Shown: positions 1 to 41,044 of the stretch, one piece after another | Layout: the number at the start of each line of letters is the position of its first letter | Numbering within the stretch: the first letter of the stretch is position 1 | Virus genome (UHGV): UHGV-0106252 | DNA from: a virus | Length of the DNA: 41,044 nt | Strand: one strand, 5' to 3' | Position numbers and translations under genes: made by a program | The notes under the pieces: generated by a model | What the model was told of the DNA's origin: nothing | The model's input: only the letters and a program-made list of their open reading frames with translations | Databases searched by the model: none

Positions 1-35
1 TTGATTGGAATGGTATTTTTTAGATGTGAGAAATA

Positions 36-55
36 TTTTACCCGCTATTTTACCC
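36..55. repeat. Two TTTTACCC motifs, part of an 8-bp motif array spanning the window ends
   Basis: TTTTACCC at 36-43 and 48-55. Same motif and its inverse GGGTAAAA recur at 40995-41039 on the other side of the circular junction. Confidence 0.5.
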
Positions 56-269: not shown

Positions 270-285
270 GGAATCGAACCTGCAA
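270..285 (-). other. 16-nt tRNA T-arm-like segment (candidate attP core)
   Basis: Minus strand reads TTGCAGGTTCGATTCC, matching the T-stem/loop of a tRNA (argW-like as I recall it). Flanks do not complete a tRNA, so it is not a tRNA gene. Confidence 0.4.
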
Positions 286-37665: not shown

Positions 37666-39666
37666 CTAATTAATTACAAAGCCGTTATCATTAAGTATTT
37701 CTTTAACACCAGATTTAGATAAGTGAAAACCAACATTATATAATCCGCCGTTATGGTCAATTATTCTACAACCATTGTCATCACATAAAGTTTTTATAGG
37801 TTTTATCTTATGCAATCCTTTCATGTCAGGAATATATTTATCTAATATATCGGATTGTTGTTTTGCTAAGTTAAGCCCATTTCTGCTGCTTGTGTATGTT
37901 GTCTCAAACTTATAATTGATAGATCTTAGTTTTGAGAATACTATGTTGGCAACATCTTCAGAAGGATTAGGGGTTGGGTATACAATATATACATCATGCC
38001 CCTTGGACACGAGTTTCTTAACATTATTCGATAGAGAGATATATGCCTGCTCGCCACCTAAAAAATCTCCGCCACTAAAATTTTGCTTCGCCATCTCTAA
38101 AGGAGATGACACAGGAGCCTTAGCAAGCGGGAATTGATCATAATTAGCAGCTATAAAAATAGTTTTCTTCCCCTTAAGAGAATCAATGGCTTTCCATCTT
38201 TGCTCATTGACAACCACACATTCAGGAACATTGCCAAACCACATATCACTCACAAATGGACATTGCTCATACGTGAGAGATAACATCCCTTTGTTATTTT
38301 CTTTTGAGTAATCTAAAATTGTTGGTGCATATTGTCCAGCATAGCTATCTCCTAATACGATGATGTCATCACCGCCAAAGCTACACGGGTTATCAAGAGA
38401 ACGTAAACCACATAAATAACTATCAGGTTCACCTCTTAAACTTTTACCAATATTTGAATAATCTGCCAATTTCCTGAACTCTGGTTCTTTGTACATTTCA
38501 TAGGTTTCTTTCAGAATGCCTGCAAGACGCCACTGAAAACCCCCATCGGCCTTTGCATAAATAGAGAAAGCAAGCAATGCTGACAGAGATGTTGCTAATA
38601 CTATTGTATTCTTACTTTTAACATGTTTTGCTCTATATGGTTTTTCAATAAAAAAATATGAAAAAGACGAAATAACAATTGAAATTGATGCTAATACTAC
38701 ACAGTAATAAGGAGTGATATTTTCACTAAATAATATCCTGTAAAAAACAAAAACAGGTTGATGCCATAAATATAGAGAATATGATATCAAGCCAATAAAG
38801 ACAATCGGACGCAAGGATAATATTTTAGATATTAAATCGGCACCATTTGCAAATGCGATTATCAAACATGAACCAGCTACAGGTATTAGGGTGATAAATG
38901 AAGGGTGTTTGATGTTATTTCCAAAAAACAACATTGAATAAACAATCATCAACATTCCAATTACTGGCAGAAACGAAGTTAAAGATGATTGGTCTTTATG
39001 TATATTGCTTCTTCTTTCTTTTACAAAAAAAGACACAATTCCACCAAGAATTAATTCCCATGCCCTTGGTAGTAGCGTATAGAATGCTAAGTCAGGGTAA
39101 CTGCTAACTATAATATTTGCATACACAATAGATGAAACAGAAATCAATATAAGAAGTAATACTCTGTATTTCTTAATAAATTTATTTATAAAAATCAATA
39201 AGAATGGATAAAATACGTAGAATTGCCATTCAACAGCAAGACTCCATGTATGAAGGAGTGGTTTAAATATACTTGCATTTGATACATAGCTATCTTCACC
39301 AAGAAAATAATAATTAGAACCAAAATAAATAGCAGAAATGAGAGATTCAGAGAATTTTACTAAGTCATTTGGTAGAAGAATTTTATAAGCCACTATCGAT
39401 GTAACTACAAGCATAGCAATAAGAGCAGGAACAATTCTCTTTATGCGTCTCCAATAGAAGTCAGTTAGTGAGAAAGAGCGGCTATCAAGTTTATTTATAA
39501 TGATATCTGTAATTAAATATCCTGAAAGAACCAGGAAGACATCAACTCCAAAGAATCCGCCTTTGAATATCTTTACTCCAAACAAAGAAATGCCAGAGTG
39601 ATAAATGATGACAGCCATCACTGCCAAACAACGCAATCCATCAAGCTCTTTCCTATACTTAAGCAT
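37666..39666 (-). CDS. oac: O-antigen acetyltransferase (acyltransferase-3 membrane domain plus SGNH domain; Oac/OafA-like)
   Basis: 666 aa; N-terminal multi-TM acyltransferase-3 domain (RCLAVMAVIIYH...), C-terminal SGNH-like domain. AT-rich. Same position as oac in Sf6. Confidence 0.75.
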   Translation of the reverse strand: MLKYRKELDGLRCLAVMAVIIYHSGISLFGVKIFKGGFFGVDVFLVLSGYLITDIIINKLDSRSFSLTDFYWRRIKRIVPALIAMLVVTSIVAYKILLPNDLVKFSESLISAIYFGSNYYFLGEDSYVSNASIFKPLLHTWSLAVEWQFYVFYPFLLIFINKFIKKYRVLLLILISVSSIVYANIIVSSYPDLAFYTLLPRAWELILGGIVSFFVKERRSNIHKDQSSLTSFLPVIGMLMIVYSMLFFGNNIKHPSFITLIPVAGSCLIIAFANGADLISKILSLRPIVFIGLISYSLYLWHQPVFVFYRILFSENITPYYCVVLASISIVISSFSYFFIEKPYRAKHVKSKNTIVLATSLSALLAFSIYAKADGGFQWRLAGILKETYEMYKEPEFRKLADYSNIGKSLRGEPDSYLCGLRSLDNPCSFGGDDIIVLGDSYAGQYAPTILDYSKENNKGMLSLTYEQCPFVSDMWFGNVPECVVVNEQRWKAIDSLKGKKTIFIAANYDQFPLAKAPVSSPLEMAKQNFSGGDFLGGEQAYISLSNNVKKLVSKGHDVYIVYPTPNPSEDVANIVFSKLRSINYKFETTYTSSRNGLNLAKQQSDILDKYIPDMKGLHKIKPIKTLCDDNGCRIIDHNGGLYNVGFHLSKSGVKEILNDNGFVIN

Positions 39667-39836: not shown

Positions 39837-40994
39837 TTACAGCACACTTTCATCAAGCCAGTCCGCCCACCACTGCATCATTTCTCTGCGCTTATCGAGA
39901 TACTGAGCATGGTTGTAAATACCGCGCACAGATCCTCCGTTGGCATGTGCCAGTTGCACTTCAATAGCGTCAGCAGGCCATTCGTGCTCGTTCATAATCG
40001 TGCTGAATTCATGCCTGAATCCGTGACCGCTTTCCAGACCTTCATAGCCGATTTGTTTGATCACAAGTAGTACCGCGTTCTCGCAGATTGGCTTCTTCTT
40101 ATCGTTGCGTCCGGCAAAAACAAACTCTGATACTGGTTTAGTGATTGAGCTTAGCGTAGTGAGAAGTTCAACCACCTGGTCTGACATAGGAACAACATGA
40201 ATCTTGCGGCCCTTCATCACACTGGCGTCGATAGTGATAATCCTGTTTTCAAAATCGACGTTCTTCCATTGCATGGAACGAAGCTCTTTTGTTCTGAGGG
40301 CTGTGTAGCGTAAAACTTTGGTCGCAATGAGCGATACGATACTTCCTGAAAATGTTGCCAGTGCTTTGTTGAATGCCGGGATCTGGTCTGCAGGAAGAAA
40401 CGGGAAGTTCTTCTTGCGGTATCCCTTCATGGCGTCAGCAAGGTCAGGTGCCGGGTTATATTTAGCCCTTCCGGTGACAATAGCGTAACGGAAAACCTCG
40501 CCGCATCTTCTGCGTGCTTTGTTGGCTCGCTCCATTGCACCGCGATCTTCAAACCTGCGGATTACTTCCAGCAGTTGCATAGGCTCAATATCCTGAATTT
40601 CAAGGCCGCCGATGATAGGTAAAATGTCGTCATCAAACATTTTTGCAAGTTCAGTTGCATAGCCTACTGACCAGACTTGCTTCTTGTGCTCGTACCATTC
40701 CTTGTAAATCGCACTAAAGGAATTGTTGTTAGACGAAGCCTTTTTCGCTTTTACCGGATCGATGCCAACCGAGATGTCTTTCCTCGCAGTCCATGCTTTA
40801 TCCCTTGCCTCCTGCAAAGTCATAAGCGGATATTTTCCTACGGTCAGGATTTTCTCCTTACCGTCAATCTTGTAGCGAAGCTGCCATACCTTTTTCCCTG
40901 ACACAGGGACATAAAGGTACAGGCCATTACCATCGAGTAGGCGGTATGGTTTTTCTTTCGGCTTTGCTGCTTCAATCTGCTTAACGGTGAGCAT
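39837..40994 (-). CDS. int: Tyrosine integrase (P4/IntS family)
   Basis: N-terminal DUF4102-type arm-binding domain; C-terminal catalytic domain with R...HGFRH...Y. ATG at 40994 gives 385 aa; the ORF track extends to a GTG at 41030. Confidence 0.9.
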   Translation of the reverse strand: MLTVKQIEAAKPKEKPYRLLDGNGLYLYVPVSGKKVWQLRYKIDGKEKILTVGKYPLMTLQEARDKAWTARKDISVGIDPVKAKKASSNNNSFSAIYKEWYEHKKQVWSVGYATELAKMFDDDILPIIGGLEIQDIEPMQLLEVIRRFEDRGAMERANKARRRCGEVFRYAIVTGRAKYNPAPDLADAMKGYRKKNFPFLPADQIPAFNKALATFSGSIVSLIATKVLRYTALRTKELRSMQWKNVDFENRIITIDASVMKGRKIHVVPMSDQVVELLTTLSSITKPVSEFVFAGRNDKKKPICENAVLLVIKQIGYEGLESGHGFRHEFSTIMNEHEWPADAIEVQLAHANGGSVRGIYNHAQYLDKRREMMQWWADWLDESVL

Positions 40995-41039
40995 GGGTAA
41001 AAATCCGGTGGGTAAAATTATTTTATCCACTTTTTACCC
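40995..41039. repeat. GGGTAAAA / TTTTACCC motif array upstream of int (candidate Int arm or RDF binding sites)
   Basis: GGGTAAAA at 40995-41002 and 41010-41017; TTTTACCC at 41032-41039; degenerate TTTTATCC at 41021-41028. Continues at 36-55. Confidence 0.5.
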
Positions 41040-41044
41040 GTCAT

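Follow-up and report, generated by a model that had tools for sequence, protein, structure and literature searches.

Predicted IntS arm-type sites at both ends of a P22-like prophage sequence correspond to a KplE1/HK620/Sf6-type att region

We analyzed a cluster of short repeats at the two ends of the window, by which we mean the whole 41,044-nucleotide stretch of viral DNA (UHGV-0106252). The six copies are very probably (probability about 0.93) arm-type sites for the integrase IntS in an att region of the KplE1/HK620/Sf6 type, with four sites on the P' arm and two on the P arm. The integrase reading had been put forward in the first-pass annotation, and it is borne out by sequence identity with KplE1, by an Arm-DNA-bind_3 domain in the encoded integrase, and by co-variation of the motif with that domain among relatives. 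By extension, the sites are predicted to be bound and to function in the window's own prophage. The motif array itself brings no new biology, as these arm sites are already known: they were dissected in KplE1 and annotated in the HK620 GenBank record in 2001. Its value is mainly for annotation, where it marks the element as an argW-integrating IntS/TorI prophage and the window as cut within both att sites, with the core, TorI sites, and -35 box of intS left outside. The features, by window position, are as follows.

1..35, no strand: inner P arm, from the missing 24 bp next to the core up to site E; identical to KplE1 attR save one base
36..43, minus strand: putative site E, GGGTAAAA, P arm (attR side), oriented as C and D
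48..55, minus strand: putative site F, GGGTAAAA, P arm; holds the last torI codon GGG and the stop TAA
50..250, minus strand: torI, excisionase (recombination directionality factor, RDF), 66 aa; stop TAA at 50-52 inside site F
39837..40994, minus strand: intS, heterobivalent tyrosine integrase, 385 aa
40995..41002, plus strand: putative site A, GGGTAAAA, outermost P'-arm copy, inverted relative to C-F; abuts the intS ATG
41010..41017, plus strand: putative site B, GGGTAAAA, P' arm, oriented as A; in the intS 5' UTR
41021..41028, minus strand: putative site C, GGATAAAA, one mismatch, P' arm; the intS transcription start lies inside it
41032..41039, minus strand: putative site D, GGGTAAAA, equivalent to P'1 of KplE1; overlaps the intS -10 box

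Searched as an exact match on both strands, GGGTAAAA/TTTTACCC has exactly five copies in the 41,044 bp of the window, at 36-43(-), 48-55(-), 40995-41002(+), 41010-41017(+), and 41032-41039(-), and all five copies lie within 55 nt of the nearest window end. Dinucleotide-preserving shuffles (n = 100) gave a mean of 0.70 copies, and none of the 100 contained five or more. The sixth copy, GGATAAAA at 41021-41028(-), which reads TTTTATCC on the plus strand, carries one mismatch. Site C alone is not significant within the window because one-mismatch copies are common there (45 seen versus approximately 29 expected); it is validated by position only, as relatives carry GGGTAAA or GAGTAAA at this place. 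The P' arm thus has two copies and two inverted copies (40995-41039) and the P arm has two (36-55), so that the description of an 8-bp motif in five to six copies and both orientations is accurate, with five exact copies and one mismatched.

The array had also been described as separating an IntS-like start from a TorI-like stop, and this is the case: the intS ATG (40994-40992, minus strand) abuts site A, and the torI stop lies inside site F. The accompanying estimate of an approximately 110-bp span is right only if the window ends are joined directly; in a real attP the six sites span approximately 256 bp. In the reconstructed attP, they lie at -168, -153, -141, -130, +68, and +80 relative to the core center, and the array runs from -168 to +87. 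The motif is unlike the core and is repeated on both arms flanking it.

Identity with characterized att DNA carries much of the assignment. All 50 bases of 40995-41044 are the same as in the attL P' arm of KplE1 (CPS-53) from E. coli K-12, and also as in HK620, Sf6, and CUS-3, while 58 of the 60 bases at 1-60 are the same as in the KplE1 attR arm, the differences being T for G at window position 15 and A for G at position 59. Site A is identical in KplE1 attL, HK620, Sf6, and CUS-3, and site E is identical in KplE1 attR, HK620, and Sf6. The HK620 record annotates "attP" repeat regions at 1207-1232, which corresponds to A and B, at 1232-1253, which corresponds to C and D, and at 1441-1463, which corresponds to E and F. 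The comparison with Sf6, HK620, and KplE1 att regions that the first-pass annotation had proposed therefore finds the motifs conserved and the P' arm identical, and the match to all three supports reading the window ends as arms of a single attP. On KplE1 attL, the IntS arm-type sites and their TAAA core were reportedly mapped and mutated by Panis et al. in 2007 (JBC) and 2010 (Virology).

For KplE1 attL, the IntS arm-type P' sites are described as sharing a conserved TAAA, and P'1 as overlapping the intS -10 box of a promoter with consensus-like boxes TTGACA and TAaAAa, from which transcription starts approximately 30 nt upstream of the ATG (PMC2951348). IntS binding to the arm sites on the identical KplE1 sequence is reported in papers that PMC2951348 cites. 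We located the published primers (PMC3509656) in the window: attL-SpeI falls at 40970-40994 and attR-IHF2 at 54-73, the latter with one mismatch. By this mapping, the attL and attR substrates used in vitro, and the attP product defined by attL-SpeI/attR-IHF2, bracket exactly the six sites, and site F is part of the 135-bp attR fragment that supports recombination in vitro. The primer names imply IHF sites on attR (PMC3509656), and a host-factor (IHF) site would be expected in the inner P arm, at 1-35; judged by eye, this segment holds no convincing match to the IHF consensus.

The integrase encoded next to the P' arm has the domains expected of such a protein. Pfam detects Arm-DNA-bind_3 at residues 2-86 (2.2e-25), followed by Phage_int_M and Phage_integrase (1.6e-39). 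The gene is 96-98% identical at the DNA level to the int genes of CUS-3, Sf6, and HK620, and matches at 100% the intS that E. coli strain 81 carries beside tRNA-Arg. At the opposite end of the window, the torI product matches PDB entry 1Z4H ("Tor inhibition protein") over its full length (residues 1-66, E = 6.6e-43), and a TorI annotation is present in 1,400 E. coli genomes.

The intS promoter is embedded in the P' arm. Its -10 box, TAAAAA, is at 41031-41036(-), inside site D. In KplE1, strain 81, and relatives, a -35 box TTGACA and a 17-nt spacer precede the (G)TAAAAA, which places the -35 box of the window 11-16 nt past the window end, and the transcription start transfers to 41024/41025(-) through sequence identity with KplE1. 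A mechanical ORF list gives intS a 397-aa form that begins at GTG 41030 (39837-41030, minus strand). Because this GTG is upstream of the mapped transcription start, we take ATG 40994 (385 aa) as the real start. No obvious Shine-Dalgarno sequence precedes this ATG, as arm site A occupies the position. A consensus promoter scan of attL from strain 81 returned an unrelated weak match in place of the mapped intS promoter, which was missed because its -10 box, TAAAAA, lacks the final T.

With site D holding the mapped intS -10 box and sites C to A lying in the leader, the copies might be taken for promoter elements only, either -10-like TAAAAT hexamers or an A/T-rich intS leader, with no role in recombination. 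We consider this very unlikely. Two of the copies follow torI on the opposite arm, a place that needs no promoter, and the copies occur in both orientations. Moreover, in a related class of loci with GGGCATA in place of the motif (described below) both arms change together, and att substrates need their arms in order to recombine in vitro. As arm-type sites, the P' copies probably double as operators for repression of intS by its own product, since the array runs from the -10 box (D) through the transcription start and the 30-nt leader up to the ATG (C, B, and A). In KplE1, IntS represses its own gene roughly 5-fold, and single TAAA-to-ATTT mutations in P' sites did not relieve this autorepression (PMC2951348).

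The first-pass annotation had offered RDF sites as an alternative to integrase sites. The motifs do adjoin torI, with site F overlapping its stop, and RDF sites are typically short repeats in att arms, but the sequences of known TorI sites differ from the motif: the published pentamers GTTCG, GATCG, and GTCCG are absent from GGGTAAAA. In KplE1, these pentamers make up five TorI sites, which are grouped closer to the core in two blocks (68-95 and 131-158 nt upstream of the intS ATG; PMC2951348). Both blocks would lie beyond 41044, and we found the pentamers only in the reconstructed gap, outside the window. The arm motif also stays constant among relatives as the pentamers change, as detailed below. 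It is thus highly improbable that the copies are TorI rather than IntS sites.

We collected 61 IntS-relative loci across bacterial genomes. Relatives whose N-terminal arm-binding domain is 60-90% identical to that of the window occur across Enterobacterales, in Citrobacter, Dryocola, Pantoea, Edwardsiella, Rouxiella, Erwinia, Serratia, Tatumella, Mixta, and a Klebsiella phage. Upstream of int, these share the order TTGACA, 17-nt spacer, GGGTAAA(AA), G(G/A)GTAAA, TTTTACCC, TTTTACCC, ATG. In the alignment of this GGGTAAA class, the motif columns are nearly invariant and the spacers have diverged; because the columns at the position of site C are kept, this degenerate copy is validated as a site. 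The TTTTACCC directly before the int ATG, equivalent to site A, is kept in the Citrobacter, Pantoea, Edwardsiella, Serratia, Tatumella, and Klebsiella relatives. Site B is missing from two Xenorhabdus relatives, which have only three P' sites, and the Klebsiella phage Chronis has GAGTAAAA at the position of site E. The window fits the GGGTAAA class as an ordinary member.

In a second subgroup, GGGCATA/TATGCCC takes the place of the motif on both arms. The loci L022, L030-L033, L037, L084, and L094-L127 show it upstream of int, at about 1080-1500, and free-phage contigs of this subgroup have two GCGGGCA(T/C)A copies on the other arm, just past the RDF stop. The argW-type core is nearly the same as in the GGGTAAA class (the CTGCAGGGGAC part is common to both), as are the distances and the layout with the promoter inside the arm. 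In free phages of the GGGCATA class, the core is approximately 177 nt and the RDF stop approximately 271 nt upstream of the int ATG; the corresponding distances in Chronis are 175 and 252 nt. The N-terminal domains of the GGGCATA class are only 47-59% identical to that of the window IntS, even in members such as L022 and L127, whose remaining integrase domains are 75-81% identical to its other domains. Between the core and the -35 box, the pentamers of this subgroup vary with the RDF (GTTC(G/T), TTACC, or GACCA/GAAC) and the arm motif remains constant; TorI-type GTTCG-like pentamers are present with both arm classes.

The motif therefore follows the arm-binding domain of the integrase and not the excisionase, since GGGCATA accompanies the diverged N terminus and is constant across changes of RDF. 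This co-variation disfavors the RDF-site reading. It also raises the possibility, which we hold tentatively and at somewhat less than even odds, that argW phages with IntS fall into at least two natural arm-specificity classes, GGGTAAA and GGGCATA, that differ in the N-terminal domain and have been shuffled independently of RDF-site types. Nature would then supply modular and possibly orthogonal intasome parts, all competing for a single attB. The two-class co-variation of motif and arm domain is mildly new, in that we found no earlier description as far as we checked.

Where the first-pass annotation did not hold is in taking the window ends to be contiguous. In HK620, Sf6, HK633, and HZ41, 150 bp lie between the positions that correspond to the two ends; in the HK620 record, the int-side end corresponds to 1257 and the torI-side start to 1408. 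According to the HK620 and Sf6 records, the attP core falls in this gap (1368-1383 in HK620). The chromosome of strain 81 runs on from the int-side end for 111 bp to TGGTGTCCCCTGCAG, followed by the tRNA-Arg gene argW, and going outward from the torI-side start, E. coli chromosomes have 24 bp, then the 15-bp core again, then dsdC. The core TGGTGTCCCCTGCAG, which is the 3' end of argW, lies 111 nt and 24 nt past the respective ends in strain 81, EEC_W5, HK620, and Sf6. Host sequence past the ends, which that annotation listed, for the source assembly, as an observation that would count against it, is thus found in the nearest relatives. Among 2.9 million viral contigs, the directly joined window ends had 0 exact matches, versus 118 for the normal int-side continuation.

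We infer that approximately 150 bp are absent between the window ends, which would include the argW core, the five TorI sites, and the intS -35 box and so take in the elements of att that matter most. The window would then be truncated within attL and attR rather than being a circular molecule opened at this point, with both the prophage state and the missing 150 bp deduced from near-identical relatives. Beyond 41044, the sequence is expected to continue with GGAGTGCGGCTGTCAAC..., to reach the core TGGTGTCCCCTGCAG after 111 nt, and then to enter argW. Inside the window, ARAGORN finds no tRNA gene.

The position of the cuts suggests how the ends arose. The window extends 49 nt past the torI stop and 50 nt past the intS ATG, and IMG/VR proviruses with this int family are often cut exactly at the int ATG, losing the attL arm sites; one IMG/VR provirus with a window-specific 40-mer also ends exactly there. 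Based on these overhangs and cuts, the window looks like a gene-bounded provirus call of an argW-integrated prophage, trimmed approximately 50 nt outside its terminal genes as padding. Gene-bounded calls routinely cut att arms, and because they cut through the arms, joining the ends of such a provirus window can produce a false "circular junction."

In principle, the two ends could really adjoin each other if the genome, circular or terminally cut, were a non-integrating deletion variant without the 150-bp core segment. The window by itself is silent about its flanks, and both of its ends match HK620 to the last base. Nevertheless, we regard a core deletion as extremely unlikely, given the 0 versus 118 contig matches, the padding-like 49/50-nt overhangs together with the IMG/VR cuts at the int ATG, and the location in argW of the most similar chromosomal copy, which is 100% identical over 5 kb.

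The segment between the ends has two further features in relatives. A 46-aa ORF is annotated over the attP core and TorI sites as hkaB in HK620 (L001 1324-1464) and as gene 17 in Sf6 (L002 1556-1696), mostly within the 150 bp absent from the window; it is probably no gene, because integration would disrupt it. An inverted repeat, CCCCTGC...GCAGGGG with a 16-nt spacer, lies just outside window position 1 (L005 1166-1199, in EEC_W5 attR). One arm of this repeat is inside the core, and the repeat is kept in HK620, Sf6, and KplE1. It may reflect core-type IntS binding or mimicry of a tRNA stem.

Across the rest of the element, relationships differ by region. Over its last 1.2 kb, the window shares 96-98% identity with the integrase regions of CUS-3, HK633, Sf6, IME10, and HK620, and its last 5 kb matches E. 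coli strain 81 at 100%. At the other end, identity to HK620 and HK633 is 98.7% in the first 700 bp. P22-like (Lederbergvirus) coliphage genes form a mosaic over the first 25 kb, and none of the phage records spans more than 58% of this part. Only 2 of 5,426 complete E. coli genomes have the 5-kb int-side block at ≥99.7% identity. Strain 81 (L003/L006, NZ_CP088131.1 1490983-1510251) has the same intS end and a 99.3% identical torI end approximately 19.3 kb apart at argW-dsdC, and its element is apparently a deletion derivative of a prophage like that of the window.

Two other observations concern DNA near the terminal genes. An ORF of the acyltransferase family (666 aa, 37666-39666, minus strand) adjoins intS in DNA of 31-39% GC, at the place that the O-antigen acetylase (oac) moron occupies in Sf6. 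The 16-nt GGAATCGAACCTGCAA at 270-285(+), some 20 nt before the start of torI, exactly repeats the part of the argW T arm that abuts the host att core (L003 475-490), and it is the only tRNA-like piece in the window. A match of this type with ≤2 mismatches is expected by chance 0.03 times. The HK620 record has a cII-activated "phage integration" promoter at the equivalent position, and GGAATCGAACCTGCAA may be a leftover from an ancient imprecise excision or simply coincide with this promoter and its cII box.

The arm-type assignment suggests how the region would work. The N-terminal domain of IntS would bind the GGGTAAAA copies, and arm-bound IntS would at the same time grip the distant core through its C-terminal domains. 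Bending by a host factor, together with TorI bound on attL during excision, would fold the approximately 260 bp into an intasome that carries out integration and excision. This folding scheme follows the established lambda/KplE1 model.

The closest characterized system is the KplE1 module (IntS, TorI, and attL/attR at argW), which has the same IntS and TorI proteins as the window. In both, the intS -10 box is inside the core-proximal arm site, and KplE1 occupies the argW-dsdC locus, as do the nearest relatives of the window. KplE1 is a 10-kb defective remnant, whereas the window is a 41-kb P22-like prophage with morphogenesis genes. HK620 (AF335538) and Sf6 (AF547987) have the same order of int, attP, and xis (torI) and are 97-99% identical to the window in DNA sequence at both ends; as free phages they hold the 150 bp with the attP core that the window lacks. 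The two attP regions are reportedly covered in Clark et al. (2001) and Casjens et al. (2004).

The lambda attP is the more distant parallel, and its arm-type sites P1, P2, and P'1-P'3 were reportedly defined by Ross and Landy in 1982. Like the window, lambda has a heterobivalent integrase and non-core repeats on both arms of an att region of approximately 250 bp, one arm having two sites and the second three or four. The motif itself is different, and the arm-binding domain of the window integrase belongs to another family (Arm-DNA-bind_3, P4/IntS type). KplE1-type modules differ from lambda in three further respects (PMC2951348): the RDF sites are on the int-side arm (attL) and not on attR; attP separates int and xis, each of which has its own transcription; and the arm sites enclose the int promoter, leading to autoregulation.
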